Assembly (NCBI GenBank): GCA_022646745.1
Contig: CP060262.1
Span: 690,001 to 722,000, forward strand
Direction of reading: 5' to 3'
Source: Planctomycetales bacterium
GTDB lineage: Bacteria; 4484-113; JAFGCY01
Length of the DNA stretch: 32,000 bases
In this document: positions 327-29,652 of the stretch, in pieces
How the letters are laid out: each line of letters opens with the position of its first letter
Position numbering within the stretch: the stretch's first letter is position 1
The notes under the pieces: model-generated
Database searches by the model: none
What the model was told of the DNA's origin: nothing
Seen by the model: only the letters and a program-made list of their open reading frames with translations
Translations under genes and position numbers: made by a program

Positions 327-476
327 CCCCTCCAACCTCAAAACTCCCCCACTCCAAACTAAAAAGGGAGGCCATTGCGGCCTCCCTCGTTGTCATTTCA
401 GTTCAGGTTGTAGTTTGGCGGTTTGAGCTTGGAATGAATCTCTCCAAACTCCGCACTCCAAACGCCCCACTCCAGC
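327..476. repeat. ACTCCAAA / TTTGGAG heptamer-word arms flanking the atpC terminator
   Basis: cccctccaacctcaaaactcccccactccaaact (327-360) is partly complementary to caggttgtagtttggcggtttgagcttgga (405-434). A further block tctccaaactccgcactccaaacgccccactccagc lies at 441-476. The same word family occurs at 26261-26334. Confidence 0.55.
361..386 (-). terminator. Rho-independent terminator of the atp operon
   Basis: Minus strand reads gggaggcc-gcaat-ggcctccc followed by ttttt, about 110 nt downstream of the atpC stop. Confidence 0.75.
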
Positions 477-496
477 CAGGCTAACAACCTGGCCTC

Positions 497-964: not shown

Positions 965-3246
<2,282 letters not shown>

Positions 3247-3404
3247 GTCTACTGAATCGAGAGAGTGCTCGGTGCAGTTAATCAGCATACAGCTCAGGAG
3301 TGTCCCGGACCTGCCGCTGTTCAATCCACGCACAGCTGATTTTCCGCGCGCAAGCGCCTGCCGGAAAGCGGCAGGTTGGCCTGGTGTTGCGCGATTCAGC
3401 CTGA

Positions 3405-4280
3405 TCATCCCTTCAACGCCTCCGCGCCGCCGACGATGTCCAGCAGCTCAAGCGTGATGCCCGCCTGGCGGGCCTTGTTGTATTCAAGTGTCAGGGCATC
3501 GATCATGTCGCCAGCAGCCTTGGTGGCGTTTTCCATCGCCACCATGCGGGCGCCGTTCTCGGAGGTGAAGTTCTCCATCGCGGCCTGGAACATGATCGTC
3601 TGGAAGTAGCGCGGCAGCAGTGCGGTCAGCAGCTCCTCCGGGCTCGGTTCAAGGTCGTAATTGTCGGCGAAGCCCTCCGCCTCGTCCTCACCGGCCGGCT
3701 CCAGGCTCTGGATCGGCAGCAGGCGCACGGCTGTCGGGTCGGACTTCATCACATTGATGAAGCGGGCGTAGATCATGTGCACTTCGGCGACCTCGCCCTC
3801 GAGGTAGGCATTCGTGAGCACTGCGTTCACCGGCTTCAGGTCGGCGTAGCTGGTGTTCTCATTGAAGCCCGGGAACCAGCTGCCCCCCTTGCCAAGCGCC
3901 TGCCAGCCCTTCTTGCCGACGAACACGATCTCCGTTTCGCGGCCCTGGGAGCGCTGTTCACGGATGAACTGCTCAGCCTTCTTCACGAGGTTCGCATTGA
4001 AGCTGCCGCACAGGCCCTTGTCGCCCGTGAACAGGAGCAGCATCACCTTCGGCGCTTCCGCGTTCACATGGCTCAGGAAAGGGTGGTCCACCTCGGTAGC
4101 CACGCTCGCGAGGTTGCGCATCACGCCGGCCAGGGTGTCCGTGTAGGGACGGCTGGCCTGGGTGCGGCCCTCGCTCTTGCGCAGGCGAGCGGCAGCGACC
4201 ATCTTCATCGCCTTCGTGATCTGCTGGGTGCTCTTCACCGATTTGATTCGGTTGCGGATTTCCTTGCCGCCCTTAGCCAC
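3405..4280 (-). CDS. atpG: F1 ATP synthase gamma subunit
   Basis: N-terminus (M)AKGGKEIRNRIKSVKSTQQITKAMKMVAAARLRK and C-terminus ARQAGITLELLDIVGGAEAL are canonical gamma. GTG start with AAGGAGG 6 nt upstream. Confidence 0.93.
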   Translation of the reverse strand: MAKGGKEIRNRIKSVKSTQQITKAMKMVAAARLRKSEGRTQASRPYTDTLAGVMRNLASVATEVDHPFLSHVNAEAPKVMLLLFTGDKGLCGSFNANLVKKAEQFIREQRSQGRETEIVFVGKKGWQALGKGGSWFPGFNENTSYADLKPVNAVLTNAYLEGEVAEVHMIYARFINVMKSDPTAVRLLPIQSLEPAGEDEAEGFADNYDLEPSPEELLTALLPRYFQTIMFQAAMENFTSENGARMVAMENATKAAGDMIDALTLEYNKARQAGITLELLDIVGGAEALKG

Positions 4281-4641
4281 CTGCGTCCTCCTTCGTATCG
4301 TTTCCGTTCAGCCGGGGCTTGAAGCCGATGTCACTTTCATCTGCTCCGGCCCGCCAGCCCGTGCGCTCGGGGAACTGGATCACCGTCGCGATGTAGTCCC
4401 AGCGGACCAGGATCACCGCGCGATGGCTCTCTTCCCGTCGCTGCTCCGGCGGAATGTAAGTCTCCTGCTGGTCGTAGACCGGCACCACCTTGTAGTTGGG
4501 GTGTTCGATCCACATGCCCAGTTCGTCAAGGCCCGTCACGTCCGCCGCGAACTTCTCGCTGTAGACGCCCGGCAGGTCCAGCAGCTCATAGGCGGTCCGG
4601 TCGAGCTGGATCAGCACTCGCGTGCCGACCACATCCTCCAT
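4273..4641 (-). CDS. Hypothetical small cytoplasmic protein between atpA and atpG
   Basis: Stop TAA (4273-4275) overlaps the atpG GTG start by 8 nt, and the atpG SD lies within its last codons. Alternative in-frame ATGs at 4686 and 4716 overlap the atpA 3' end. No signal peptide or TM segment, and no family recognised. Confidence 0.6.
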   Translation of the reverse strand: MEDVVGTRVLIQLDRTAYELLDLPGVYSEKFAADVTGLDELGMWIEHPNYKVVPVYDQQETYIPPEQRREESHRAVILVRWDYIATVIQFPERTGWRAGADESDIGFKPRLNGNDTKEDAGG

Positions 4642-4675
4642 CGTGACTGCCTTGTGCAAAGCTGCCTCCCGTCTG

Positions 4676-6328
4676 TTAACCGGCATGCTTCGCCGCGAAA
4701 TCGGCGAAGTAGGCATCGGCGGCGGTCTTCATGCTTTCCTCGACATCCGCATGGTTTCCGGTCTTGCGGATCGTCTCCAGCACCTGGCCGTAGTTTTCCT
4801 TCAGGTATTTCACGAAGCCTGCGCTGGAGGCCTGTACCTGGTCAACGGGCAGCTTGTCGTAGTAGCCCTTACTACCGGCCCAGATCTGCGCGACCTGCTC
4901 CTCGGTGGCAAGCGGGACGTACTGGCCCTGCTTCAGCAGCTCCACCATGCGCTCACCACGGGTGAGCAGTCGCAGGGTGGCGGCATCCAGGTCAGAACCG
5001 AACTGTGCGAAGGCCGCCATTTCGCGGTACTGCGCAAGGTCCAGCTTCAGTGAACCGGCGACCTTCTTCATGGCCTTTGTCTGAGCGCTACCACCGACTC
5101 GCGACACGGAGATACCCACGTTCACCGCGGGACGGATGCCCTGGTAGAACAGGTCACTCTCCAGGAAGATCTGTCCATCGGTGATGGAGATCACGTTCGT
5201 CGGGATGTAAGCGGACACGTCGCCGGCCTGGGTCTCGATCACCGGCAGGGCCGTGATCGATCCGCCGCGGCGCACTTCGACACCACTAATGTCGTTGCCG
5301 CAGCTGGCACATTTCTTGAAGATGGCCTGCTCCTCATAGGCATGCAGCTTGTTGAGCGGGTTGTTGTTGCCGCACTGCGGGCAGAGCTTGTAGTCGGCCA
5401 GCTTGACGGCGCGCTCCAGCAGGCGCGAGTGCAGGTAGAACACGTCTCCCGGGTAGGCCTCACGGCCCGGCGGACGGCGCAGCAGCAGGGACAGCGTACG
5501 GTACGCGGCAGCCTGCTTCGTCAGGTCATCGTATGCGATCAGCACATCCTGGGAGTTGTACATGAACTCCTCGGCCATTGCCACGCCCGCGTAGGGGGCG
5601 ATGTACTGCAGCGGCGCGGGATCGGAGGCGGAGGCGGAAACCACGATGGAGTAGGCCATCGCTCCGGTCTCTTCCAGCTTGGCGACCGTACGCGCCACGT
5701 TGGATTCCTTCTGGCCGATCATCACGTAGATGCAGAACACGGGGGTGTTCGTCTCGTGGGTGTACTTCTGGTTGATCATCGCGTCGAGGATGATCGCGCT
5801 CTTGCCGGTTGAACGGTCGCCAATGATCAGCTCGCGCTGTCCACGGCCGATCGGGATCATCGAGTCGACGGCCTTGAGGCCCGTCTGCATCGGCTCATGC
5901 ACCGGCTGGCGGTAGACCACGCCGTCTGCCTTGCGCTCCAGCGGACGGTAGCGGTCGGTGACGATCGGGCCCTTGCCGTCAATCGGCTGGCCGAGCGGGT
6001 TGACAACACGGCCAAGCATGGCCTTGCCGACGGGCACCTGCAGCACCTTGCCGGTGCGCTTGACCGGGTCGCCTTCCTTCACGCCCGAGTCGTCGCCAAG
6101 CAGCACGACGCCGACGCTCTCCTCCTCCAGGTTGAGCGCCATTCCCATGACGCCACCGGGGAACTCAAGCATCTCGGACGCGAGGCAGTTGGACAGGCCG
6201 AAGACTCGTGCGATACCGTCGCCCACCTGGACGACCGTACCCTGGTCCTCGAGCTTGAGGCTGCCCTCGTAGCTCTCGATCTGCTTCTTGAGTAATGCAG
6301 TTACCTCTTCAGGTCTGATAGCTGACAT
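4676..6328 (-). CDS. atpA: F1 ATP synthase alpha subunit with Cys4 insertion
   Basis: Walker A GDRSTGKS, plus [42 protein letters not shown] and [25 protein letters not shown]. 550 aa, longer than the usual 500-515, because of the insertion at 5267-5398. Confidence 0.97.
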
Positions 6329-7752: not shown

Positions 7753-8841
7753 TTACGCGTGGCTGTGCGCATGGTCATGCGCATCATGGTGTTCATGATG
7801 CTCGTGGTGGTCATGCGGCTCCCACATTGTGATGTAAACGGCTGAAAGCAGGCTGAAGATCAGCGCCTGGATGGCACCGAGCAGCAGGCCCAGGAACAGG
7901 AACGGCGTATGCAGCGGGACCCAGGGAATGAGGCCGGCGAAAACGCCGAGCAGCACATCCTTGCCGAGCAGGTTGCCGTACAGTCGCAGTGACAGAGAGA
8001 TGGGCTGGATGAACAGCTCCATGATGTGGATGATCGTGAACAGGGTCGCCATGAAGGCGATGATGCCGTAGCTGGCGCCACCCATGCCCAGCTCCTTAGC
8101 AGTCGGCAGTGTGCCGGGGAAGTGCTTGAGCCAGCCAAGCGGGCTCTGCATGATGGCGGAGCCGTGCACGTAGAGGAAGACCACCAGGGCCATTGCCAGG
8201 TTGAAGGACAGGTTGGCGGTCGGGGCCTTGCCAAGGAAGATCAGGCCCATCGTGTTGCAGACGAGGATGTAGATGAACAGTGTGCCGACCAGCGGCAGGT
8301 GGCGGCGTACCTTGTCGCGGCCGACGATCGCGCCGAAGAAGTCCTCGAAGAACTCGAACACGATCTCAGCGAACAGGCCGCGGCTCTTGAGCTGCTCACC
8401 CTTCTCGGGGCGGGCCTTGAGCTGGCGGGAAGCACCGAGGAAGAAGGCGCAGAGGCCGATCACGACCACGAAGCCGAAGATGATGGTCTCGAGCGCGGTG
8501 AAGGCGTCGCCATTCGGGTCATTCAGGCCAAGTCCCTTGGCCCAGTTGTCAACACCGACGATGCCGTCATGCAGCGGATCGCCCGCCGGACGGGAGTAGG
8601 CTTCGTGGTGGATCAGGCCCAGCAGGTTGGGAAGCTCGGGAATCTTGGAGCCATGGTGCTCCGCATGTCCATCGCCATGGGAATCACCCTGCGCATCGCC
8701 ATGCGCGCCGTCGTGGCCTTCAGTTGCCATGTGGCCACCGTCGGCGGCCTGCGCGGAATGGACACCGTTGTCCGGCGCTGCATGGTTGTCGTGCGTATCC
8801 TCGGAGACGCTGTCTCCGTGAGACTGCCACATGGCAAGCAT
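7753..8841 (-). CDS. atpB: Fo ATP synthase a subunit with His-rich N- and C-terminal extensions
   Basis: Conserved Arg block ISLSLRLYGNLLGKDVLL and five or more TM helices. I prefer the ATG at 8841 (GGAAGG 8 nt upstream, 1 nt after the atpI stop) over the ORF-track start at 8862. Confidence 0.9.
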   Translation of the reverse strand: MLAMWQSHGDSVSEDTHDNHAAPDNGVHSAQAADGGHMATEGHDGAHGDAQGDSHGDGHAEHHGSKIPELPNLLGLIHHEAYSRPAGDPLHDGIVGVDNWAKGLGLNDPNGDAFTALETIIFGFVVVIGLCAFFLGASRQLKARPEKGEQLKSRGLFAEIVFEFFEDFFGAIVGRDKVRRHLPLVGTLFIYILVCNTMGLIFLGKAPTANLSFNLAMALVVFLYVHGSAIMQSPLGWLKHFPGTLPTAKELGMGGASYGIIAFMATLFTIIHIMELFIQPISLSLRLYGNLLGKDVLLGVFAGLIPWVPLHTPFLFLGLLLGAIQALIFSLLSAVYITMWEPHDHHEHHEHHDAHDHAHSHA

Positions 8842-8842
8842 G

Positions 8843-9226
8843 TTATCTACCTTCCTCAACAACTGGGTCAGTCGGCCTGTCGAGCAAGCCCCTCACGATA
8901 AGCACGACAGGGAAAGCTACGAGCCCGGCAACCAGTCCCCTCAGATCCGTGAAATCGGCTGACAACAGCCACAGCAGGATGAGGTAGGACGCCGGAATTT
9001 TAGCACAGACCAAAATGAACACCAATAGTTTCCCGGGGCTTTTCTGTGCAATCAGGGACGAAATGAACAGGGCCAGCAGGGCGAGGTTGGACGCCGCCCA
9101 GAGGCAGGCCAGCAGGAATGACGCTCCTGCTCCCTCATCCCAGTAGATGCCTATACCAATCCCGCCGACCAGCCCGAGCAGGGCCAGGTCTCGCACGCAG
9201 CGGATTGTCATCGCAGTGCTCAGCAT
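8843..9226 (-). CDS. atpI: AtpI-like small membrane protein
   Basis: 127 aa with about 4 TM helices, directly upstream of atpB as in classical atp operons. Assignment rests mainly on position and topology. Confidence 0.55.
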   Translation of the reverse strand: MLSTAMTIRCVRDLALLGLVGGIGIGIYWDEGAGASFLLACLWAASNLALLALFISSLIAQKSPGKLLVFILVCAKIPASYLILLWLLSADFTDLRGLVAGLVAFPVVLIVRGLLDRPTDPVVEEGR

Positions 9227-13335: not shown

Positions 13336-13362
13336 GGGACCGGGGAACAGGGAATATGGGGG
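13336..13362 (+). repeat. GGGACC-type G-tract word block
   Basis: gggaccggggaacagggaatatggggg contains four G3+ tracts with loops of 3-5 nt. On the sense strand of the 644-aa gene it reads C-rich, 31-57 nt upstream of that gene's start. Confidence 0.7.
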
Positions 13363-13420
13363 ATGAGGTATGCGGGGTGGGCATGCCGTAGCGGCGGCAC
13401 TCCTGCCGCCGGAGGGCAAG

Positions 13421-13456
13421 TCTGAATAGTCTGAATAGTCTGAATAGTGGAAGAAG
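13421..13456 (+). repeat. 3 perfect tandem 9-mers TCTGAATAG followed by TGGAAGAAG
   Basis: tctgaatag tctgaatag tctgaatag tggaagaag, read directly from the sequence. Confidence 0.9.
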
Positions 13457-13542
13457 TAGCGGCTGCTTCCAGCAGCCGAAACCAAAGCAGTAGCGGCGCA
13501 CGCTTCGCGCGACTGAGAGGGGATGCTACATGGGAGACGTAG

Positions 13543-13698: not shown

Positions 13699-13862
13699 CT
13701 CTGCGCCTCCTTTCTTCCTCTGCGCCTCAGCTCCAGTAAAACCAGCCTGGCGAGCACGGTGTTTCCCGCGCGACTGCGTGCCGGCGAGGTTCGCATACGC
13801 TTGGGTGACAACGGGGTGTGAGTAGCGGTTTTATCAACGCGGAGTCGCGGAGGCGCGGAGGA
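13699..13862 (-). repeat. Dispersed ~170-nt hairpin / MITE-like element, copy B
   Basis: Its reverse complement aligns with 1-170: gataaaaccgctac...cacgcagtcgcgcgggaaacaccgtgctcgccaggctggtttt...gaggcgcagagg. Terminal inverted ctctgcgcctc / gaggcgcggag motifs are retained. Confidence 0.6.
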
Positions 13863-13904: not shown

Positions 13905-13991
13905 CTTCACTCGCATGCTCTCGAGTGACAGCGAGACCTGCGCAGCGGTTCTGTTGGCGCAGAGGCGCAGAAGGGATCCTGAGGCGCAGAG
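13905..13991 (+). repeat. Partial third copy (C) of the same element
   Basis: 13947-13991 ggttctgttggcgcagaggcgcagaagggatcctgaggcgcagag matches 126-170 ggttttcttggcgcagaggcgcggagaaagacatgaggcgcggag. The internal part is shortened. Confidence 0.5.
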
Positions 13992-14141
13992 ATGGATTAA
14001 CTCTGGCAATATAACCTCACTCACGAAGCGCATTGCGCACGAAGTTTCCCCTCGCGTGCTGGCACATCGGGGATGCGCCGCTAACCCTGATTTGCTTTGG
14101 CATGGTGATTGGCGACGCACGGATGGCGCAAATTGAGAAAC

Positions 14142-14171
14142 AAAAAAGGGGCGCCCCCGCAGGAGCGCCCC
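14142..14171 (-). terminator. Rho-independent terminator of the IPT/PKD lipoprotein gene
   Basis: Minus strand reads ggggcgc-tcctgcgggg-gcgcccc followed by tttttt, 28 nt after the stop. Confidence 0.75.
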
Positions 14172-14198
14172 GATTGAATCCGGTTCAGGACTCGTGGA

Positions 14199-17100
14199 TT
14201 ACGGAGTCGGATCGGGCGGAACCTTGTTCAGGCCGTTACCGTGACCGTTGCCCACCATACCATCATCCAGGTCGATGGTGGAACCATCGGCGAAGCTGCC
14301 ATCGTTGAACAGGATGATCTGTCCCGGCAGCCACTGGCCCACCGCGTTCTTGGACTCGGTTGTCTGGATCGTGGCAATACCGCCATCTGTGATCGGCACG
14401 TTGTTGAAGGAGAAGGAACCATCAGCGCCGGAGGTCGTCAGGGCGAAGGCCACAGCGGAACCATCCAGGTAGATGCCGACTTCCTTGCCGGGCAGGGGCT
14501 GCTTCGGAGGCAGCGGACCACCCAGCGGCGGGACGCTGTCGAACAGGTATACAGTACCGCCGAAGTTCAGGTTGATGTCACCACCACCGCCGCCGCCAAC
14601 GGAGATCAGCACCTGGTCAGTGTCGGTCGCGTTGTCGGACATGCGCTCCACGGTCAGGGTCGCGGTGTAGTTGCCATCGGCAGCATACACATGCGGCTGG
14701 TTCGGGGGAGTGGTGCCAAGCGTCCAGACCTCATCACCACTGCCGTCGCCGTAGCTCAGGGTGTAGGTGTATTCAAGGTCGGCGCCTGTGCTGGAGCCGG
14801 CGGCATTGAAGGTCACGTTCAGCGGGCTTGCGCCGCTGGTCGGGTTGCCACTCAGGTTGGCGTTCGGGCCGGTCACGACCGCGGTGCCCATCGCCACTGC
14901 GTAGGCCTCGCTCATCACGCCGGAGTTCGCCACTTCCTGGTTGGTGCCGCTGCCAAGTGCGCCGGTCCAGACGTAGAAGTAGTGCTGGGTGCCGTCAGTG
15001 GTGATCATGTTGCCGGTCACCACCGCGCTCTCGCTTGCATCGGCACCATTCACGACCTCAACCATCAGGTTGCCGCCGAGGCGGTTCATGTCGAAGCTGA
15101 TCGTGGTGCTCGTCGGGGTCACCTCAAACGGGGTGACCACCGGGACCAGGCCGGAAGACGGGCTGGCGGTGAACGGATCCACGTAGTTGGCCTGCACGAC
15201 CCAGAACAGGTAGGTCTTGTTGCCGACCTTGCCGGGGATCTGCGGCGGGACGAGGTCACGGCCGTTGAACTGCATGGTGCCGTCGGCGACCAGGCCGTCC
15301 GCGGGCTGGATGCTCAGCTTGTGGGCGGAGCAGACCAGCGGCTCGACGGAGGTGAACTCAGCGCCGCCGGAGGTCATCACCTTGATCTTGCCGCTCAGGC
15401 TCTTGCCGGTCTGGGCCGGAAGGTCGAACTCGATCGCGGTGTCAGTCCAGTCAAGGTTGTTGCCGCTGACAATGTCAACGAGCACCTTGTCCGCGGTGTC
15501 AGTGGCAAGCTCAAGGCTGCCGGCGCTGGCACCGAAGTTGAGGCCGACCAGGCGGATGCGGGAACCGCTGCCGCCGGCGTCCACATAGCGGTAGCCGAGC
15601 GGACGGTTGGTCGCGCCACCCGGGCTGAAGGCCTTGAGGTCACGACGGAAGGTGTTCAGCTTGTTGCCGCTCTCGATGTGGTCGGAGCGGTCGGAGTGGT
15701 ACCAGGCCTCGGAGCCGAAGCTCATCACCTTGTACTTCTCCTCGCCGTTGTCATCGTAGAACATGAACAGGTTCGGGGCATCCTGGCCGAACTGGTTCCA
15801 GTCGGAGGTTCCCATCTCGGTGATCACCGGCTCGTTCGGGCCGACGACCAGCACCTTGCTGTTCACATCAACGATCACGCTGTCGTTGGTGCTCTTGTCA
15901 GTGATCAGGACCTGTCCCTGGAAGGTGCCCTTCTTGTCATAGACATAGGTGAAGGGGCTGCTGTTCTGGACGTTGCCCTTGATGCTCGGGTCACCGGCAT
16001 CGGGGATCAGCTGGTAGCTGTAGCTGCCGCTGCCGCCGACCACGGAGACGCTGTAGCTGAACTGGGTCAGGCCCTGCACGCCAGCCGTCGGGGTGACGTC
16101 GGCGAAGCCCGTCAGGTCAGAGGTGATCTTCACGGTGAACGGATCGCTGGCGAGGCCGGCATCGTTGGTGACGACGACGTCGACGTTGCCGTCGCCATCG
16201 GGGGTCACGCTGCCGAGCGCCGGGATCAGGATCTCGTTGTCAACCCAGCCGGCCTGGCTGCCGTTGGTGTCAGCCACATCCTGGCCCTTGCCACCGACGG
16301 AGATGTCGCCACTGCCCTGCTGGAAGCCGAAGTTGGTTCCACGCACGATGATGCTGCCGCCGATGCGCACGTTGTTCGGGGACACGCCGGTGATCACCGG
16401 CTTGTTGCCCACCTGGAACGGGCTGCTGTACTCGTCGAACTCACCACCGACGGTCACGCGGATCGAACCGCTGACGGCACCCTCGGGGATGCGGACGGTG
16501 ATGCTGGAGTCACTCCAGAACACGATCTCCATCTGCTTGCCGTTGAGGGTCACCACGCTGCCGGCCTGGGTGTCGCCGAAGCCGGAACCGGTGATGTTGA
16601 TGGAGTCGCCCACGCCGCCGGTGAGCGGATCGATGTTGTCGATGCTCGGCGGGTTGACGCTGGAGTCAGGGGTCAGCGCGTTGAACGGCTTCAGGTTGGA
16701 CTGGTTCTCGCCGACCTGCACGTAGACGGTGCCGTTGCTTGAGGCGGTGGCGGGCACGAACACCTTGATGTTCGTGTTGGTCCACTGCGGAACGTCCACG
16801 CCGCCGATGTTCTGCACGGCCACGCGCGCCTTGACGATCTGGGCGTTCTGGCTCACGGCGGAGTCAGTGCTGAAGTAGACGCCGCTGGTGCCTTCACTGG
16901 AACCGAAGCCTGAACCGATGATGGTCACCTGGTCCTGGCCGCGGCGCCCGAAGTCAGGGCTGATCGCGTTGATGATCGGCGTGGTGTTCGGCGCAGTCGG
17001 GATGAACAGCTGGGCATTGCTGCCGCTCTCGCTGTTCAGGCCACCCACGGTCACGACGACGATTCCAGAGCTCATCCCGGAGGAGACCACGGCATTGATG

Positions 17101-20278: not shown

Positions 20279-20433
20279 GAGTGGTCAGTGGCCGGTGGTC
20301 AGTGGTCATTCAGAAACTGTTGGCAGAATCAGAAGCAGCGGAATCACCTGTTGTGCTTTCCGGCACCCTGGGCTGCTTCTCATTCTGATTCTCATTCTGT
20401 CGCTGGCCACTGACTACTGACTACTGCCCACTG
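20279..20433. repeat. ~155-nt imperfect palindrome built from heptamer and hexamer words (divergent promoter region)
   Basis: Left arm: gagtggt cagtggc cggtggt cagtggt ... cagaat cagaag cagc. Right arm: gctg cttctc attctg attctc attctg ... gccactg actactg actactg cccactg. Confidence 0.75.
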
Positions 20434-20439
20434 ATTAAG

Positions 20440-21126
20440 GTGCATATTCTATCGGCTGCTGGAGCGTGCTTTGCTACAATCGCGCCCGTGCCCGACGAAC
20501 AGCTGCAGATCCTGAGATGGAGCTTCAACCCCTGGAAGCAGGGGCTGGGCGGCTGGCGGCGGCCGCAGCTGGCCCTGCCGCTGTCGCTCATGCTCGCCGT
20601 GATCCTGAGCTGGAGCCTGACCGTGCCGAACTTCCCGCAGGGGTATGAGGCCCAGCTTGAGGGCGCACTGGCTGAGCTCGGGAATGCCCCGTTCGCCGTA
20701 CTGGATGGGCGGCAGCTCAGCCGCGAGCAGGTGGAAGGCCAGCTTGCACAGGTGCGCACGGCACGCGAGAGCTTCCCCGTGCAGTGGCTGCTCTGGGGAC
20801 TTGTCAGTGCAGTGCTGCTGCTGGGGATGAACGCCTCGCTCTACCTTCCGGTGCGCTATGAGCTGAATGAGCAGGGTGTGCGCGTGGAGTTCATGGGTAT
20901 GCCGAGCCTGCGCCGCTGGGAGCACTACCGCAACTTCTACCCGCATGAGCACCTGGTGCACCTGACTACCCTGCCCCGCCCAAGCGCGCTGGACCCCTTC
21001 CGCGGACACTCACTGATGTTCTCGGGGAATAGGGACTCTGTACTTGCTTATATTGGGAAGCATGTGGAAAGGCGGGATTCGAAGGGACCTGGGACCAGGG
21101 ACCAGGGACCTGCCAGTGGCCAGTAA
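20440..21126 (+). CDS. Hypothetical membrane protein (2 TM)
   Basis: TM segments LALPLSLMLAVILSWSLTV and WLLWGLVSAVLLLGMNASLYL, with high GC3. The track start is GTG at 20440, and an in-frame GTG at 20488 sits 7 nt after TGcTACAAT. The last ~14 codons and the stop lie inside the heptamer repeats. Confidence 0.65.
   Translation: MHILSAAGACFATIAPVPDEQLQILRWSFNPWKQGLGGWRRPQLALPLSLMLAVILSWSLTVPNFPQGYEAQLEGALAELGNAPFAVLDGRQLSREQVEGQLAQVRTARESFPVQWLLWGLVSAVLLLGMNASLYLPVRYELNEQGVRVEFMGMPSLRRWEHYRNFYPHEHLVHLTTLPRPSALDPFRGHSLMFSGNRDSVLAYIGKHVERRDSKGPGTRDQGPASGQ
20472..20490 (+). promoter_or_regulatory. Extended -10 (TGcTACAAT) 7 nt before an in-frame GTG, a candidate leaderless start
   Basis: TG 20472-73, TACAAT 20475-80, GTG 20488-90 in frame with the 20440 ORF. 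No SD. Confidence 0.4.
21084..21110 (+). repeat. GGGACCN x4 heptamer array (G3N4G3N4G3N4G3)
   Basis: gggacct gggacca gggacca gggacc, lying inside the 3' end of the 20440-21126 CDS. Confidence 0.9.
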
Positions 21127-21169
21127 TCAGTATTCAGTAGTCAGTGGCCAGTAGTCAGTGGTTAGTGGG
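21114..21169 (+). repeat. Eight tandem CAGTNNN heptamers
   Basis: cagtggc cagtaat cagtatt cagtagt cagtggc cagtagt cagtggt tagtggg. The TAA stop of the upstream CDS is inside the second unit. Confidence 0.9.
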
Positions 21170-21304
21170 CGGAGTGCTTTTTGCAAAACAGAGGAATCAT
21201 CTAAGCGGATAATCCCAATCGCCGCAGGGCGGCGCCGGTCCTTGATTTCTCTTTCGATCAACAATGCTTGGAATTCCCATCCCTTATCCCTGACCCAGGA
21301 ATCC

Positions 21305-21360
21305 AGAAACCCGATCCCGGAAACCCGAAACCCGATCCCCGGTCCCGGGTCCCCGGTCCC
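21305..21360 (+). repeat. GAAACCCGATCCC words followed by a GGTCCC (C-rich) heptamer block
   Basis: agaaacccgatcccggaaacccgaaacccgatcccc ggtcccgggtccccggtccc. This is the complement orientation of the 21084 block and ends at the -10 box of the next gene. Confidence 0.8.
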
Positions 21361-21378
21361 TGATAAACTCTTCCGATG
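21361..21378 (+). promoter_or_regulatory. Extended -10 (TGaTAAACT) 6 nt before ATG, a candidate leaderless start
   Basis: TG 21361-62, TAAACT 21364-69, ATG 21376. No SD. Confidence 0.45.
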
Positions 21379-22118: not shown

Positions 22119-22319
22119 AGGGAGAGGTCAGTAACATGGCCGCGGCTCCCTGGAGTCCGGCGGTCCTGCAACTGCAACCCGGACAGGCAGGCGGCTTCCG
22201 TGCAAGCGGGGCCGGCAGGCCGGGCAATACGGCACAAGCCATGAGGTATCGGCGCGAGCGGGTACTATATGGGTGGACCGTACAAGTAATCTGAACGAAT
22301 GGAAGAAGGGGAGATACAC

Positions 22320-24680
22320 ATGAAGCGTATCTATCTCGTTATGGCCGCGATCCTCGTGAGCCTGTTCGCCTTCAGCTGCGGAGGCGGATCAGGCCAGGTC
22401 GCGGACCCGAACACTCCGGCTGGAGGCAATGGGGACCAGAACGGTGAACTGTCACTGTCTCCCTTCACCGTCGAGGGTGAACGCGGCGTCAGCATAATCG
22501 ACGGCAAGCTGAACATCCGCTCCGCCGTGTCCGACTCTGAGCTTGATGCCGTGCTGGGCCGCTACAACTGCGCGGTGGACAGCCGCGACGGCAGCAAGGC
22601 CGTGATCGACGTGCCGCCGGGCACCGACCTTGAGGCCCTGTCCCGTGAGCTGGTGAAGGAATATGCGATCAGCGATGCCAGCCCGATCCACCGCATCAAC
22701 ATCCCGGTGGTGCTCGACAAGTTCGATGGCGGCAAGGTCTCCTCCTGGGTCCCGCAGGACCCCTATGCCTCGACCGAGTTCGTCGGCATCGGTGACAACG
22801 GCACCGACCTGGTGGCCGCACTGTTCCCCGGACAGGGTATGCCAAACGAGATCCTCGGCATGAACTCCGCCTGGGACGTGACCCTGATCGGCGCTGCCTC
22901 CGCTGCCCCGGTCAACATTGCGATCATCGACGCCGGCTTCTATGACTATTCAGTCGAGGCCCGCGCCGACCTTGATGCCACTCCAGGTACCGGCCAGATT
23001 GACGAAGTGAATTCAGGTTCCGTCGCCAGTGACGGCACCTTCGTGGCAGGCTACACCGCTGCTTCCTGGGACCTGTTTGACGACGGCGACCCGGGCACGC
23101 AGGACCTGCCTTTCCGCCAGACCGGTGAGAACCTGTTCGGCATGCTGGCCTCGCTGCACAACAACATCTTCTCCGTGTCCTTCGGCGACACCAGCGTGGG
23201 CGGCGCACCGCCGGATGGCACGATCGACAGCAACGAGATCTTCAACGAGGGCATCGCCGGCATGGTGCCCAACGCCAAGTACATGCTGATCAAGACCGGC
23301 GAGCCGAATGGCAACGCCTGGTCCTTCACCGACAACCACATCGCTGAGTCCATTGACCACGCGGTGGCGGCCGGTGCGAACATCATCCTGCTGGGCATGT
23401 TCGCCGAGGGCCCGGTCGGCGGCAGCGTCAGCACCGCCCTGGCGAATGCGGCTGACAACGACGTGCTGTGCATCGCACCCGCAGGTGACACCGTGCTGAG
23501 CTATAACGCCGGCACCTTCGACGCCCCGGCGGACATCGGCACCACGAGCTTCACCCCGGCCTCCGACCCGAACTGCTTCAGCGTGAGCAGCACCGGCTTC
23601 AAGCGCGTTGACATCAGCCTGCTTGACCCGCAGGATCCCGGCGCTGGCCCGATCCCGAACAACGGCCGCGCCTTCCGTCCGTTCAGCATTGCAGGCTTCA
23701 ATGAGAGCTACTTCGCGGTGCAGGCCTGCTCAAACACCAATACTGACATCTCCGCCCCGGGCTTCGGCATCGGCTGGGCGGTGCATCCGTATTCCGGCGG
23801 CACCTTCCCGGGACACAACTACAACCTGCAGTTCTCGCAGTTCGGCACCGCCCCGGCAGCGGCTTACGTGGCCGGCGCGGCAGCGATGGTGTACAAGAGC
23901 CTGAGCGCTGCCAACGGCACCCCGCCCTCCGATGACGAAGTGCGCCAGGTGCTGCTTGACAACGTGCATGACCCCGCGCTCTTCGACTTCACCGGCGTGT
24001 CCGGCGGCCTGCTGAACATCAGCCAGGCTGTCAACGCGGTTGCCGGTGGTGGTGTGAGCGGTCCCGCAATGGGCCTCTCCGTGCCGGCCGGCCAGCTCGT
24101 GCCCGCCACGCTTTTGACCACCTTCCAGCTGGCACCTGCCGTCACCGGCGGTACCGGCCCGTTTGACCTGTCCATCGACTGGGGCAACGGTGATGCCCCG
24201 ACCGTCGTCAACAACTGGGCCAGCAATGACCCGGTGGCACTGACCGGCGGCTGGGACACCCTCGGCCTGAAGACCGTGCTGATCACCGTCAGCGAGACCA
24301 CCGGCGACATGCGAAGCGCCAACCGCACCGTGGAGATCCCGGTCTACAACGCGATCACAAGCAACCTGACCGTGATGGGCCCGATCGACCCGCAGGACCC
24401 GGGCCAGGGCGAGAAGCTGTTCACCCCGGCGCAGCCGATCCAGGACGCCGTGACCTACACCTTCAGCGCCAACGTCGCCAACGTGTTCAACGGCAGCGTG
24501 AACGGCACCCCGAACAACCCGCAGTTCGGCTGGGACTTCGACGGTGACAACGTGATTGACAAGCCCGGCACCACTGTGGAGCATGCCTTCATCAATACCG
24601 GCAGCTTCAACATCAAGTTCATCGTGACCCAGGATGTGCTGCCCGACTTCGAGGTGACCCGTACGGTTCTGGTGAACTAA
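22320..24680 (+). CDS. Subtilase (S8)-like lipoprotein with degenerate catalytic residues and C-terminal PKD-like domains
   Basis: Lipobox LFAFSC-GGGSG and SD GGGGAG. S8 blocks NIAIIDAGF (Asp), SDGTFVAGYT (His position is Asp), IAPAGD (Asn position is Asp) and FGTAPAAAYVAGAAAMVY (Ser position is Ala). PKD-like C-terminus FGWDFDGDNVID...VEHAFINTGSFNIKFIV. Confidence 0.8.
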   Translation: MKRIYLVMAAILVSLFAFSCGGGSGQVADPNTPAGGNGDQNGELSLSPFTVEGERGVSIIDGKLNIRSAVSDSELDAVLGRYNCAVDSRDGSKAVIDVPPGTDLEALSRELVKEYAISDASPIHRINIPVVLDKFDGGKVSSWVPQDPYASTEFVGIGDNGTDLVAALFPGQGMPNEILGMNSAWDVTLIGAASAAPVNIAIIDAGFYDYSVEARADLDATPGTGQIDEVNSGSVASDGTFVAGYTAASWDLFDDGDPGTQDLPFRQTGENLFGMLASLHNNIFSVSFGDTSVGGAPPDGTIDSNEIFNEGIAGMVPNAKYMLIKTGEPNGNAWSFTDNHIAESIDHAVAAGANIILLGMFAEGPVGGSVSTALANAADNDVLCIAPAGDTVLSYNAGTFDAPADIGTTSFTPASDPNCFSVSSTGFKRVDISLLDPQDPGAGPIPNNGRAFRPFSIAGFNESYFAVQACSNTNTDISAPGFGIGWAVHPYSGGTFPGHNYNLQFSQFGTAPAAAYVAGAAAMVYKSLSAANGTPPSDDEVRQVLLDNVHDPALFDFTGVSGGLLNISQAVNAVAGGGVSGPAMGLSVPAGQLVPATLLTTFQLAPAVTGGTGPFDLSIDWGNGDAPTVVNNWASNDPVALTGGWDTLGLKTVLITVSETTGDMRSANRTVEIPVYNAITSNLTVMGPIDPQDPGQGEKLFTPAQPIQDAVTYTFSANVANVFNGSVNGTPNNPQFGWDFDGDNVIDKPGTTVEHAFINTGSFNIKFIVTQDVLPDFEVTRTVLVN

Positions 24681-24683
24681 TCA

Positions 24684-24715
24684 GGGATCTGGGACCAGGT
24701 ACCTGGGACCAGGGA
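24684..24715 (+). repeat. GGGACC-type G-tract word block right after the stop codon
   Basis: gggatct gggacca ggtacct gggacca ggga, starting 4 nt after the TAA at 24678-80. Confidence 0.8.
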
Positions 24716-24734
24716 ATCGAACCCGATTCAATGA

Positions 24735-24761
24735 GGGAGGCCTGCGGGCCTCCCTTTTTTT
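24735..24761 (+). terminator. Rho-independent terminator
   Basis: gggaggcc-tgcg-ggcctccc followed by ttttttt. The 8-bp stem is the same as in the atpC terminator at 366-386. Confidence 0.8.
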
Positions 24762-24795
24762 GCAGCCGGATTCCGGGGTGAGCATTGTTCAAGCT

Positions 24796-24829
24796 GGTCC
24801 CGGGTCCCTGGTCCCCGGTCCCTGTCCCC
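24796..24829 (+). repeat. GGTCCC-type C-rich word block abutting the folE -10 box
   Basis: ggtcccgggtccctggtccccggtccctgtcccc, an imperfect complement of 24684-24715. Confidence 0.8.
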
Positions 24830-24844
24830 TATAATTTCCCCATG
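24830..24844 (+). promoter_or_regulatory. TATAAT 6 nt before the folE ATG, a candidate leaderless start
   Basis: TATAAT 24830-35, ttcccc spacer, ATG 24842. No SD. The upstream in-frame extension only translates the repeat block. Confidence 0.5.
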
Positions 24845-25420
24845 TCCCCAAGCCCCATCGACAAGGCGCGCATCGAAGCCGCCGTGCGTGAGCTGATCGC
24901 CGCCCTTGGCGATGACGTGTCCCGTGATGGACTGCATGGCACGCCGGACCGCGTGGCCCGCATGTACACCGAGATATTCTCCGGCATGCATGAGGACCCG
25001 GGCGTGCACCTCGAGACCCAGTTCGACCAGGAGTTCAGGGAGCTGGTGCTGTTTCGCGACGTGAAGTTCTTCTCGATGTGTGAGCACCACCTGATGCCCT
25101 TCTTCGGATCGGCGCATATCGCCTACATCCCGGACGGCAAGATCACCGGACTGTCCAAGGTTGTGCGCAGCTTCAAGAGCCTTGCCGCCCGCCCGCAGGT
25201 GCAGGAGCGCCTGACCGGCGAGATGGCGGACCTGCTGATGGACAGGCTGAAGCCGATGGGCTGTGCCGTCGTCGTAGAGGCCCGGCATATGTGTATGGAG
25301 ATGCGCGGCGTGCGTGCTCCCGGCAGCCTGATCACCACCTCCGCGCTGCGCGGTGTGATCAAGGACCGGGAGATCACGCGCAATGAACTGTTCACGCTGA
25401 TTGCCGGGGGCCGCTCATGA
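24842..25420 (+). CDS. folE: GTP cyclohydrolase I
   Basis: Blocks GDDVSRDGLHGTPDRVARMY, FFSMCEHHLMPFFG and VVVEARHMCMEMRGV. Confidence 0.93.
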   Translation: MSPSPIDKARIEAAVRELIAALGDDVSRDGLHGTPDRVARMYTEIFSGMHEDPGVHLETQFDQEFRELVLFRDVKFFSMCEHHLMPFFGSAHIAYIPDGKITGLSKVVRSFKSLAARPQVQERLTGEMADLLMDRLKPMGCAVVVEARHMCMEMRGVRAPGSLITTSALRGVIKDREITRNELFTLIAGGRS

Positions 25421-26280
25421 GCGCAGCCGGCAGCTGGGAGCTGGGCAATGGGCTGGCCATCGACTGCAGCCGGCCACGGATCATGGCGATCCTGAACGCC
25501 ACACCGGACAGTTTCCACCCTGGCAGCCGCCTGCCTGACAACCGCGCGGCCTTGTCAATCCGCCTGAACAACCTGCTGCAGCAGCAGCCTGACCTGGTGG
25601 ACATCGGCGGCCAGAGCACACGGCCCGGCAGTGAGCGGGTCGGCGCGGACGAGGAACTCAGGCGCGTGGTGCCGGTGATCGAGGAGCTCAGGCGGCAGGA
25701 CCCGCATGTGCCGGTCACGATTGACACTTACCACGCCGAGGTGGCTGAAGCTGCGCTGGACAGCGGCGCCAATGCGGTGAATGACATTTCCGCCGGCCGG
25801 CTGGACCCTAAGCTCACCGAACTGGTGGCCCGGCGCGGCTGTGGATACGTGCTGATGCACATGCTTGGCACGCCGGAAACGATGCAGCAGGAGCCCTGCT
25901 ACAGCAATTGCCACCTGGAGATCCGCGAGTTCTTCGAGCGCGAGCTCGAGCGCCTGGAGCAGGCCGGGATCGCACGGGAGCGCATCGTGCTGGACCCGGG
26001 GATCGGCTTTGGAAAGCGGCTGGGCGACAACCTCGACCTGATCACCTGGGCGAAGAGCTTTCTGGAGCTGGGCCGGCCGCTGCTCTACGGCGTGAGCCTG
26101 AAGCGCTTCATCGGGGAGCTGTCCGGCGAGGAGGACACCGCGAACCGCGTGAGCGGGACTCTCGGCGTGATCTGGGAGCTGCTGAACCAGGGCGTGATGA
26201 TCCACCGCGTGCATGACGTGGCCACGGCAAGGCAGATGGTGAATGTGTGGATGGGGCTGCGAGGTTTGAGGTTGGAGTGA
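25417..26280 (+). CDS. folP: Dihydropteroate synthase
   Basis: Blocks IMAILNATPDSFHPGS, VDIGGQSTRPG, VNDISAG and LDPGIGFGK. Its ATG overlaps the folE TGA (ATGA). Confidence 0.92.
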   Translation: MSAAGSWELGNGLAIDCSRPRIMAILNATPDSFHPGSRLPDNRAALSIRLNNLLQQQPDLVDIGGQSTRPGSERVGADEELRRVVPVIEELRRQDPHVPVTIDTYHAEVAEAALDSGANAVNDISAGRLDPKLTELVARRGCGYVLMHMLGTPETMQQEPCYSNCHLEIREFFERELERLEQAGIARERIVLDPGIGFGKRLGDNLDLITWAKSFLELGRPLLYGVSLKRFIGELSGEEDTANRVSGTLGVIWELLNQGVMIHRVHDVATARQMVNVWMGLRGLRLE

Positions 26281-26334
26281 GGAGTTTGGAGGGACTGAAA
26301 ACTGCCTCCAAACTGCAAACTGCAAACTCCAACC
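26261..26334 (+). repeat. TTTGGAG / CTCCAAA heptamer-word hairpin spanning the folP stop
   Basis: G-rich arm gaggtttgaggttggagtgaggagtttggaggg (26261-93), loop actgaaaactg, C-rich arm cctccaaactgcaaactgcaaactccaacc (26305-34). Confidence 0.75.
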
Positions 26335-26335
26335 T

Positions 26336-26360
26336 GATTTCGGGAACCTTTCCCGAAATC
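26336..26360 (+). repeat. Perfect 10-bp hairpin
   Basis: gatttcggga-acctt-tcccgaaatc. Confidence 0.8.
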
Positions 26361-26426
26361 GCAGGTCTTACATACCGATGACACTGAAATGGTGTTGTCG
26401 ACCAGTAATTATTCCCCCTACAGCGG

Positions 26427-26452
26427 CCTCCGGGTAACCGGAGGTTTTTTTT
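26427..26452 (+). terminator. Rho-independent terminator of folE-folP
   Basis: cctccgg-gtaa-ccggagg followed by tttttttt. Confidence 0.8.
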
Positions 26453-26482
26453 GCCTGCCGGGTCCGGCAATCCAGGCAGGGA

Positions 26483-26511
26483 TTGAAACGGGCATCTGGA
26501 CTGGTTACAAT
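26483..26511 (+). promoter_or_regulatory. Sigma70-type promoter TTGAAA-N17-TACAAT
   Basis: -35 at 26483-88 and -10 at 26506-11, about 29 nt upstream of ATG 26540, which has a GGAGA SD. Confidence 0.55.
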
Positions 26512-26539
26512 CAATGCAGTACCAGCTCCGGAGATGCAC

Positions 26540-27514
26540 ATGAAAAAGTTCAGCGCAGCGATCCCGATTCTGTTCGTCCTGCTTCTGGCCTGCACATCAG
26601 CTACCAGTCGCGTTTCACACCAGGCAAGCGTGCAAGTGCAGGTGATTGCAAGCCCACGCGCCTTTGACCGTCTGGCGCAGAATTCAATAGCTGTAAAACC
26701 GCTGGACAGCCCGGGCAACCCATATGTCGGTGAATACTCCGCCATCGACCAGTGGATCCTTGAGAATGCCCTGGCGGATCCGTCAAAGCTGAATGAGCAG
26801 GCAGAAGGAGAAACCGGCGAGCAGGCTTTCGTCACGGAGGATGGCTACATGATCCCCGTATATGTACAGCTGCACCAGGCCGAAACACTGAAAAGCAGCG
26901 GCAAACTCACGGCACTGGCCGACCAGCCGGTTTATGCAATCCAGGCGAAAGGCGTGATCGACCCGGAGCTGCATGCGTCACACCGGGACAAGCTCACGCT
27001 GATCAAAGCGCAGTATCTCCCGCAGATCCCGGGCTGGCTGGCTGGCAACCCACCGCCGAACTCGATGTTCACGGACAAGGGCACTGTGGTCACCATTGGG
27101 CTGCCTGGTGAGGAAAGGAGGAAGAGTGGTGCCGCGCATGATTTTCCGGTAAGCCCACAGCCGTTCTATCTGTTCAGTGCTGATGGCATACAACTTGCCG
27201 GACCGTCAGACACTATCAACGCCCTGTTCGGTGAAGAGCGCTGGCTGCAGATCTATGATGAAATGTTGCAGCGCGGCTGGGCCAGCGCTGATTCCGGCCA
27301 GGGCTTCAGCGCCAGAACGCAGGAAACCCGTTCCGCCGGGGTGTACCAGTTCCGTAACGGAGAAGGCGAGATCATAGGCATCTTCAACTATGACGGGACC
27401 GAGCTGAGCGAGCAGACTGCCCCCGTGCGGGATGCGCACCTGTTCAGCTTCATAAACAGGACGATGCTGCCAGAGATGTACAAAGCCCAGCAGCGAATCA
27501 TCGGACAGATCTAG
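26540..27514 (+). CDS. Hypothetical lipoprotein
   Basis: MKKFSAAIPILFVLLLAC-TS lipobox, with GGAGA 5 nt upstream. The ORF-track start at 26483 lies inside the promoter. No family recognised. Confidence 0.7.
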   Translation: MKKFSAAIPILFVLLLACTSATSRVSHQASVQVQVIASPRAFDRLAQNSIAVKPLDSPGNPYVGEYSAIDQWILENALADPSKLNEQAEGETGEQAFVTEDGYMIPVYVQLHQAETLKSSGKLTALADQPVYAIQAKGVIDPELHASHRDKLTLIKAQYLPQIPGWLAGNPPPNSMFTDKGTVVTIGLPGEERRKSGAAHDFPVSPQPFYLFSADGIQLAGPSDTINALFGEERWLQIYDEMLQRGWASADSGQGFSARTQETRSAGVYQFRNGEGEIIGIFNYDGTELSEQTAPVRDAHLFSFINRTMLPEMYKAQQRIIGQI

Positions 27515-29388: not shown

Positions 29389-29415
29389 GGGACCGGGGAC
29401 CAGGGAACAGGGAAC
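29389..29415 (+). repeat. GGGACC-type G-tract word block after the purQ stop
   Basis: gggaccggggaccagggaacagggaac, starting 8 nt after the TAG. Confidence 0.8.
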
Positions 29416-29466: not shown

Positions 29467-29505
29467 AGGGGCTGCCATGCGAAAGTCTGGCAACAGTTTC
29501 ATTAG

Positions 29506-29523
29506 TCTGAATAGTGGAAGAAG
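29506..29523 (+). repeat. TCTGAATAG TGGAAGAAG word
   Basis: Identical 18-mer to 13439-13456. Confidence 0.85.
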
Positions 29524-29652
29524 ATCCTGGTTGTCAGTGCTTAGTTCTTAGTTGTAACCTCAACGCAGCGCATCATGCATGGACATGATTTCGCAACACA
29601 GCTCCGTTGTACGTCTTGCGCCGCAGCTCCCACATCCATCAACCCGCATTCA

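Follow-up and report, generated by a model that had tools for sequence, protein, structure and literature searches.

The stretch studied here (the window) comprises 32,000 nt of a Planctomycetales bacterium (contig CP060262.1, positions 690,001 to 722,000), with a G + C content of ~62%. The minus strand encodes an ATP synthase operon, a DivIVA-domain gene, a gene of 644 amino acids (aa), a TIG/PKD protein, an M16 peptidase, an ABC-2 gene and a PQQ-propeller gene. On the plus strand there are two hypothetical genes, an S8 peptidase, folE, folP, a further hypothetical gene and purS/purQ. Scans of the window with Rfam (gathering thresholds) and for tRNAs gave no matches, and no rRNA. At the edges of the spacers between these genes lie tandem heptamers of the GGGACC type, whose arrangement and possible origin are the subject of this study.

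As a single word, GGGACC was not enriched in the window (28 matches versus 22.9 expected). The tandem dimer GGGACCNGGGACC, with at most one mismatch, was observed 15 times versus 0.35 expected, and all 15 dimers were confined to six blocks. These are the six blocks named in the original prediction, each found exactly where it had been placed. Tandem Repeats Finder resolved them as period-7 arrays of ~4 units (3-5 units per block). In a composite of ~48 kb around the window there was no GGGACC array beyond these six.

The spacer between the S8 peptidase gene and folE (S8-folE spacer) carries two of the blocks. The G-rich one (24684-24715, plus strand; GGGATCT GGGACCA GGTACCT GGGACCA GGGAATC) begins 3 nt past the TAA of the peptidase gene (24678-80). 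The C-rich one corresponds to five GGGACC-type units on the minus strand (24794-24829) and adjoins a TATAAT (24830-35); the block 24796-829 within it finishes 12 nt 5′ of the folE ATG at 24842. Between the two arms lies an intrinsic terminator, a hairpin GAGGGAGGCC-TGCG-GGCCTCCC with a T run (24733-24763, plus strand). A second pair is associated with the spacer 21127-21375. Its G-rich arm (GGGACC x4; 21084-21110, plus strand) is found within the last 14 codons of the open reading frame (ORF) 20440-21126, where it encodes ...KGPGTRDQGPASGQ*, with the stop at 21124-26. The C-rich arm (21298-21360, minus strand) is composite, consisting on the plus strand of GAAACCC units, GATCCC and GGTCCC x3. 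It adjoins a TGnTAAACT −10 box, and the block 21337-60 within it finishes 15 nt 5′ of the ATG at 21376. The remaining two arrays are single and G-rich on the plus strand: 29389-29415 (GGGACCG GGGACCA GGGAACA GGGAAC) begins 7 nt past the purQ TAG (29379-81), and 13336-13362 (GGGACCG GGGAACA GGGAATA TGGGGGA) is located upstream of, and antisense to, the minus-strand 644-aa gene, 30 nt from the GTG of the longest ORF, or 66 nt if the start annotated in relatives is used.

The original prediction had proposed that the G-rich form follows stop codons and that its C-rich complement precedes starts. The latter held for 21337-60, 24796-829 and, read on the minus strand, 13336-62. The former held for 24684-24715 and 29389-29415, but not for 21084-21110, which is inside an ORF. 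The orientation as such was consistent in six of six blocks. Because the arrays of one pair are not independent, the window gives only four independent spacers for a strand rule (two-sided p ~0.125), and its significance comes from data outside the window.

The two C-rich arms border promoters that look leaderless. TATAAT, TGaTAAACT or TAATAT precedes the ATG by exactly 6 nt, and no −35 element is recognizable, both in the window (24830-24844 and 21361-21378) and in two relatives at 75% identity, L133 (near 9060-9070) and L137 (near 9070-9080).

The arms of both pairs are inverted repeats. Complementarity extends over 31 nt in the S8-folE spacer (24682-712/24794-824, 87%) and over 26 nt in the other (21083-108/21336-361, 88%). 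The RNA of the S8-folE spacer (24678-24845) has a folding energy of −97.1 kcal/mol (z = −7.9). In its minimum-free-energy fold, 24684-24715 pairs with 24794-24829, the arrays forming an outer stem of ~33 bp round the canonical terminator at 24733-24756. The fold of spacer 21127-21375 is weak (z = −2.5). No convincing terminator was detected there, the S8-folE spacer being the only one of the two with a clear terminator. The proposal that arms pair over 30 nt or more around terminators in two spacers is borne out for the S8-folE spacer alone. We also looked at the variable seventh base, which was complementary between arms in 77% of cases versus 53% after permutation; this is confounded by genome-specific unit preference and was not used as evidence.

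The GGGACC arrays are not the only heptamers at these spacer edges. In the window and its relatives we recognized TCAGTRG/CYACTGA, GGAGTNN/CTCCAAA, GAATCAG, GGTTTCG/CGAAACC, CAGTGAA and GGGATGA families, which share the inverted, ~4-unit architecture. The divergent spacer 20280-20434 is filled by nested inverted arrays (fold z = −6.3): outer arms of AGTGGTC x4 (20280-20308) and ACTGACT x4 (20404-20434), kept in L133 and L137, enclose inner arms of GAATCAG type (20324-20339) and CTGATTC type (20372-20399). A CAGTRGY array of ~7 units (21114-21168, plus strand) follows the GGGACC arm over the stop of ORF 20440-21126. In a tight G-first pair (26270-26334; GGAGTNN versus CAAACTG/CTCCAAA units), the GGAGTNN units overlap the folP stop. 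Past the atpC stop, GGAGTNN-type arrays are accompanied by a complementary array, a terminator and one more G-array (330-496, minus strand). Of 24 period-7 arrays in this lineage, 23 have their G-richer strand directed away from the closest ORF, although the counts are not fully independent. The same direction was found in 14 of the 15 arrays classed by our script as outside GGGNNNN, a few of which have a rotated GGG (GGTTTCG) or nearly tied G and C. Families lacking runs of three G (G3 tracts), namely TCAGTRG, GGAGTTT and CAGTGAA, have the architecture and polarity of the GGGACC arrays. GTCAGAY arrays have a GGGACC-like architecture and no G/C bias by which polarity could be scored.

In the divergent spacer, NNACTGA heptamers sit right upstream of both starts on the respective sense strands (20280-20308 and 20404-20434). 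This inverted pair is common to three relatives at genus-level divergence (L133 14830-14916; L137 14748-14785).

We compared the window with a sister strain, L135 (~96% nucleotide identity), and with L133 and L137 (both ~75%). Between the window and L135, the differences were gain or loss of whole units and replacement of entire arms. The S8-folE spacer of L135 lacks one C-unit (4 versus 5), and its last G-unit is mutated. At purQ the array of L135 is degenerate, down to two G3 tracts, and a GGGATGA array past the stop of the L135 PQQ gene is nearly missing from the window. The more distant relatives carry other repeats in the S8-folE spacer. In L137 the order [GTCAGAY x4]-terminator-[GTCTGAY + CGACTGA, ~11 units]-(−10)-ATG replaces the GGGACC arrays, and L133 has a third, mixed inverted repeat. 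All three orthologous spacers form long-range stems (z = −7.9 in the window, −8.75 in L137 and −5.5 in L133). The purQ-site array and the array upstream of the 21376 gene are absent at 75% identity. There, the leaderless promoter of the 237-aa gene is kept in both L133 and L137 (TAATAT, 6 nt, ATG), with no C-array upstream. Array architecture thus persists while the sequence, G-tracts included, turns over.

The strand rule has a published precedent. In Xanthomonas (GGGAATC/GGGANTN) and Nostoc (GGGGAYT), Rehm et al. (2015, PLoS One, PMC4692102) had reported heptamer repeats rich in G, which are intergenic, most often have four units, and were assigned no function. They counted 70-75 convergent pairs per genome and found that the near ORF is on the 5′ side of the G-strand, whatever the ORF orientation, with arrays at most 50 bp past stops (sense) or at most 50 bp ahead of starts (antisense). 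The arrays in the window resemble these simple sequence repeats (SSRs) in being tandem heptamers with a G3 tract, intergenic and mostly of four units, as well as in their convergent pairs, positional rule, rarity between divergent genes and variable length among relatives. They differ in the unit, GGGACCN or GGGAAYA, with C and not T at position 6. The published type is matched by isolated GGGATCT, GGGAATC and GGGAATA units of the window alone, not by the dominant unit. Further differences are their host, an uncultured lineage, and their coexistence with G3-less families of equal architecture.

To place the GGGACC arrays in a wider context, we used 119 8-kb blocks of other genomes, obtained from a genome scan and holding 168 arrays. 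Genes were called by a heuristic based on G + C at third codon positions (GC3), which recovered 25 ORFs matching the main genes of the window and missed a few short ones. The intergenic arrays were nearer to the ORF on their 5′ side in 82 cases versus 30 (p = 9e-7), with a median distance of 33.5 nt versus 131.5 nt. Unpaired arrays followed it by 48:26. By taxon, the counts were 40:5 in Xanthomonadales, 11:2 in other Proteobacteria and, moderately, 17:9 in Acidobacteriota; the rule was not seen among the few Actinomycetota and Gemmatimonadota cases. Pairs were G-first in 27 cases and C-first in 2. Terminators were found inside 4 of the 27 pairs versus 0.28 expected; being present in so few, they show that pairing around terminators is not general.

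The strand rule is therefore real, but it had already been published for the sister repeats GGGAATC and GGGGAYT, so that only the unit GGGACCN and the lineage are new in the original prediction. It is also not a rule about gene strands. A [G-array...C-array] pair is identical when read on either strand, so for pairs the only asymmetry is G-first versus C-first, and what we observed is a strand-independent G-first polarity. Three possible sources of polarity were rejected. Mutation bias associated with transcription would predict the wrong strand upstream of starts, no replication-strand bias was found by Rehm et al. (PMC4692102), and for a telomerase-like addition the unit families are too many and unrelated.

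The comparison with L135 pointed to a gene family associated with such pairs. Two of its G-first pairs enclose small genes low in G + C. IVP1 (8526-8891, plus strand) is flanked by GGTTTCG x4, standing in place of the GGGACC arm at 21084-21110, and by a composite arm of CGAAACC x9, GATCCC and GGTCCC x3. The GAAACC part of the corresponding arm of the window (21298-21360) has 3 units versus ~9 in L135. IVP2 (14008-14403, minus strand) is flanked by CAGTGAA-type and ACTGTTT-type arrays. Both proteins belong to PF05635 (23S rRNA intervening-sequence protein; E = 1e-34 and 1e-36) and TIGR02436 (four helix bundle protein), with a weak match to Avd of diversity-generating retroelements (DGRs); the structure of a homologue, X. 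campestris XCC0516, has been solved (PDB 2GSC). Their sites correspond to the window spacers 21127-21375 and 26281-26482, which hold pairs without a gene. Entire modules with different heptamer families have thus been exchanged at one site between the two strains. Next to the second site the window has a 343-aa ORF (26483-27514; no Pfam match, GC3 0.68) that is missing from L135, where the PF05635 cassette and an 81-aa ORF are found instead.

Using IVP1 and IVP2 as queries in a metagenome scan, we collected the 80 loci most similar to them, with 34-70% G + C. Among the 65 PF05635 copies with usable flanks, 53 (82%) had an inverted repeat linking the 350 nt upstream to the 350 nt downstream, versus 5 of 194 control windows (2.6%) taken from the same contigs. 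The pairs were G-first in 52 of the 53, and the arms had period 7 in 44 of the 53. Arms had a median length of 27 nt and stood ~37 nt away from either end of the protein match. On the same contigs, period-7 arrays reached 0.98 per kb near PF05635 genes versus 0.15 per kb elsewhere. The arm families included GGTTACA, GGGAATA, GGGAACA, GGGGATA, GGTGACA and GGCAACA; GGGAACA, which is present in the purQ array, was among the commonest. Protein identity tracked the heptamer family (Mantel r = 0.56, p < 0.0005), a correlation confounded by host relatedness. Relative to the enclosed ORF the arrays point inward, against the outward rule, so that the PF05635 gene behaves as cargo within the G-first unit. 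At some distance from the gene, PF05635-bearing contigs also had additional G-first heptamer pairs, of the same family or a different one (L184 1329-1354/1751-1783; L164 1673-1771; L166 591-716/1754-1828), one with a ~400-nt gap that might hide a divergent cargo gene.

From this association it follows that GGGACC pairs with gaps of ~380 nt should enclose a PF05635 gene. Four G-first GGGACC pairs had a gap of 375-475 nt, and each of them did so, in Xanthomonas codiaei, Pseudoxanthomonas wuyuanensis and two metagenome-assembled genomes. The supplementary table of Rehm et al. lists a GGGAATC array on the start of XCC0516, and their text makes no mention of the PF05635 family (PMC4692102). Genes annotated as “four helix bundle protein” had G-first arms on a Riemerella plasmid (period 7) and a Gemmatirosa plasmid (period ~8). 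On two plasmids of Nostoc PCC 7120 there were heptamer arrays beside the gene, with no clear complementary pair. Plasmid matches to this annotation were mostly from Nostocales, which are classic heptamer-repeat taxa. Our literature search found no paper linking heptamer repeats in general to PF05635, which is no proof of novelty.

The nearest described system is the intervening sequence (IVS) in the 23S rRNA of Coxiella burnetii (Warrier et al. 2016, PMC4990558). It holds an ORF for S23p, of the PF05635 family, within a 28-bp terminal stem. At its 5′ end are three tandem GACAGAT heptamers, strain-variable in number, and RNase III cleaves the stem where the first of these begins. The pairs of the window share with the IVSs of Coxiella and Leptospira the stem length (31-nt arms and ~33 bp versus ~28 bp), the heptamers in the stem region and a unit number that varies between strains (5 versus 4; 3 versus 9), and the same kind of arms encloses a PF05635 ORF in L135 and other genomes. 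Unlike IVSs, they lie between protein-coding genes and not in helix 25 or 45 of 23S rRNA, they have no ORF, and one encloses an intrinsic terminator. Cutting by RNase III is known for Coxiella and would be an extrapolation here.

We give about an even chance to the reading that takes the GGGACC blocks for arms of IVS-like modules without cargo, in which the strand rule reflects G-first polarity plus the filling of spacers, and a transcript with both arms yields a stem of RNase III type. The arrays, their polarity, the in-silico stems, the rapid turnover and the PF05635 association are observations. According to this reading, tandem heptamer arrays of ~4 units (27-31 nt) would be the arms of G-first inverted modules that span a spacer from ORF to ORF. 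As such a module reads G then C on either strand and its arms adjoin the ORFs, “G-rich after stops, C-rich before starts” follows automatically. In many bacteria such modules bracket a small PF05635/TIGR02436 gene (S23p, related to Avd of DGRs); the copies in the window have no such gene and look cargo-less. By analogy with the Coxiella IVS, a transcript with both arms is predicted to form a double-stranded stem of ~30 bp. In the S8-folE spacer this stem would enclose the S8 terminator and be a candidate substrate of RNase III, and cleavage there might separate the neighboring transcription units. The window pairs may have arisen by loss of cargo or by the same generating process, and the modules may benefit the host.

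Several points weigh against this reading. Neither a PF05635 gene nor a remnant was found in the window, and there was none within ~48 kb; the one six-frame match (E = 0.009), once its amino-acid coordinates are converted, falls within the 644-aa gene but on its other strand, and was taken as chance. Only 4 of the 27 GGGACC pairs elsewhere have a PF05635 gene, so the derivation of cargo-less pairs from cassettes is one that we infer. The PF05635 sample is biased, as it consists of the loci nearest to two query proteins and does not represent the whole family. The single arrays at 13336-62 and 29389-415 cannot form a stem. In a convergent spacer of L135 there are two non-complementary G-arrays, one past each stop, a hint that arrays relate to the neighboring ORF by more than pairing. 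An efficient terminator within the pair, and a −10 box just past the 3′ arm, should leave few transcripts with both arms. Beyond Xanthomonadales the polarity rule is weak (42:25, on heuristic GC3 gene calls).

A mechanism based on G-quadruplexes (G4s), as put forward in the original prediction, would have RNA G4s past stops, and template-strand DNA G4s upstream of the −10 box in place of a −35 element, regulate termination and initiation. By sequence the claimed G4 potential is there: all six blocks hold at least four G3 tracts, five fit the consensus, and the sixth (24684-24715) requires one 11-nt loop, just as had been noted. A unit count with a mode of four agrees with it, as do the K+-dependent G4 spectra of GGGAATC and GGGGAYT oligonucleotides in vitro and the transcript starts and stops that are commoner at G4-capable than at control repeats (Rehm et al., PMC4692102). 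The regulatory part is poorly supported, however, and we consider it very unlikely. G3-less families match the GGGACC arrays in size of ~4 units, pairing, ORF-abutting position and polarity. The orthologous L137 spacer is built on GTCAGAY arrays, no more than two G3 tracts remain at purQ in the ~96%-identical L135, and leaderless promoters of relatives lack arrays. Many families flanking PF05635 genes have GG only (GGTTACA, GGTGACA, GGCAACA), and the ~30-bp duplex stem of pairs would compete with G4 formation. The same turnover could be taken to mean that the arrays are near-neutral microsatellites arising by slippage and tolerated at spacer edges. Polarity would then reflect purifying selection against Shine-Dalgarno-like G-runs upstream of starts and against C-rich, rut-like RNA exposed before its partner is made, and PF05635 genes would simply insert into such spacers, their link to the arrays being incidental. 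Unit gain and loss, decay and replacement between ~96%-identical strains fit this explanation, as does the absence of the purQ-site and pre-21376 arrays in the 75%-identity relatives, and the literature regards the arrays as polymorphic SSRs with no known function; the GGGAATC unit also turns up in papers on Xanthomonas genotyping (MLVA). It leaves unexplained the inverted partners, the 27:2 G-first bias and the stems of different sequence kept in orthologous spacers, as well as the 82% versus 2.6% association with PF05635 and the co-variation of protein and heptamer. We regard it as unlikely.

That co-variation would be expected if the arrays were putative binding sites of pentameric PF05635 proteins, with one heptamer per subunit; each paralogue would be autoregulated through the cognate heptamer at its flanks, and cargo-less arrays elsewhere would make up its regulon. 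The homologues XCC0516 and Avd are pentameric, and Avd binds nucleic acid. Arrays of 4-5 units, the correlation of heptamer family with protein similarity and the several heptamer families per genome (with two or more PF05635 paralogues in L135, whose arms differ) are in line with this idea, which is compatible with IVS-like modules. Co-inheritance within a cassette explains the co-variation equally well, and there is no PF05635 gene within ~48 kb of the window; we think the binding-site reading unlikely, slightly more so than slippage. Least probable, and to be given very little weight, is mobility of the kind known from repetitive extragenic palindromes (REPs), bacterial interspersed mosaic elements (BIMEs) or miniature inverted-repeat transposable elements (MITEs), in which a transposase would recognize the arrays as terminal inverted repeats. 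Terminal inverted symmetry, fixed polarity, the nested pairs in one spacer (20280-20434) and the swapping of modules at one site between strains are what such elements would show. Yet inner sequences, host terminators included, are unrelated between copies, and the arms vary among copies in one genome. No transposase-like gene, such as a REP-associated tyrosine transposase (RAYT), was found in the ~48 kb, and there is no conserved GTAG-type motif. Like REPs and BIMEs, the modules are extragenic, transcribed and hairpin-forming, could serve as barriers at 3′ ends, and are commonest between co-directional or convergent genes; REPs, in contrast, are single imperfect palindromes of ~35 nt with a conserved sequence and RAYT-driven mobility, whereas the arms in the window consist of heptamers in tandem, belong to several families that are not related, and are separated by 30 to 475 nt.

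The IVS-like reading can be extended beyond this lineage. Tentatively, and with more doubt than confidence, we suggest that G-first inverted heptamer arrays are the arms of one widespread IVS-like class, with a PF05635 gene as cargo when present. The class would include the Xanthomonas and Nostoc repeats, the short tandemly repeated repetitive (STRR) sequences, TAACTGA and GGGACC, and cargo-less pairs at the borders of transcription units would be derivatives or trans-targets of that system. The TAACTGA repeats of Beggiatoaceae, Cyanobacteria and Bacteroidetes (MacGregor 2015, PMC4679880) and the cyanobacterial STRRs are likewise intergenic tandem heptamers. NNACTGA units stand right before starts in the sense direction, as they do in the window at 20404-20434 and, as the reverse complement, at 20280-20308, and the taxa of STRR and TAACTGA overlap those rich in “four helix bundle protein” genes. 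They differ in having been described as direct repeats and proposed sites of a translational regulator, with neither inverted pairing nor a PF05635 link (PMC4679880).

The window has a few other features outside these arrays. A repeat of ~155 nt (77% identity) is found at 16-170 and, as reverse complement, at 13699-13853, with a further match between 2-79 and 13910-13987. It is bounded by inverted 8-nt tandem motifs, GGCGCAGA / CTCTGCGCC, C-rich first, and had no Rfam match; either a small mobile element or a gene for a structured RNA would be conceivable. Three spacers share a 9-nt tandem repeat, AGTCTGAAT then AGTGGAAGAAG (264-304 as reverse complement, 13418-13458 and 29502-29525), and the S8-folE spacer of L133 has a related GAATAGGAATCAGAG...GGGATCGGTAGCGG stretch. 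The middle of the S8 peptidase gene (22299-24680), ~1.4 kb long (22441-23840), is essentially impossible to align between the window and the otherwise 96-97% identical strain. The two proteins are 63% identical overall, with a hypervariable segment in what is probably a secreted protease. Within the F-type ATP synthase operon there are two minus-strand ORFs with no Pfam match, 2458-3408 (316 aa) and 4273-4716 (147 aa by our own call, 128 aa as annotated), one between the gamma and beta genes and the other between the alpha and gamma genes.

The original prediction was accurate in its finding, but this had been described for sister repeats, and G4s are the weaker reading of its mechanism. Any importance may lie in the PF05635/IVS link, which goes beyond the already published strand rule and G4 potential. 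Among tandem repeats between prokaryotic genes, heptamers are the most frequent, and no function is known for them (Mori et al. 2018). The orphan family PF05635/TIGR02436 is large; one structure has been solved (2GSC), and DGRs contain a homologue. Should repeats and protein form a single system, work in Xanthomonas or Nostoc could address both puzzles. A widespread IVS-like class, if true, would explain the dominance of period 7 among prokaryotic intergenic tandem repeats, and the orphan PF05635 family would gain a nucleic-acid partner. The link between PF05635, IVS-type modules and heptamer arrays is thus a testable lead.

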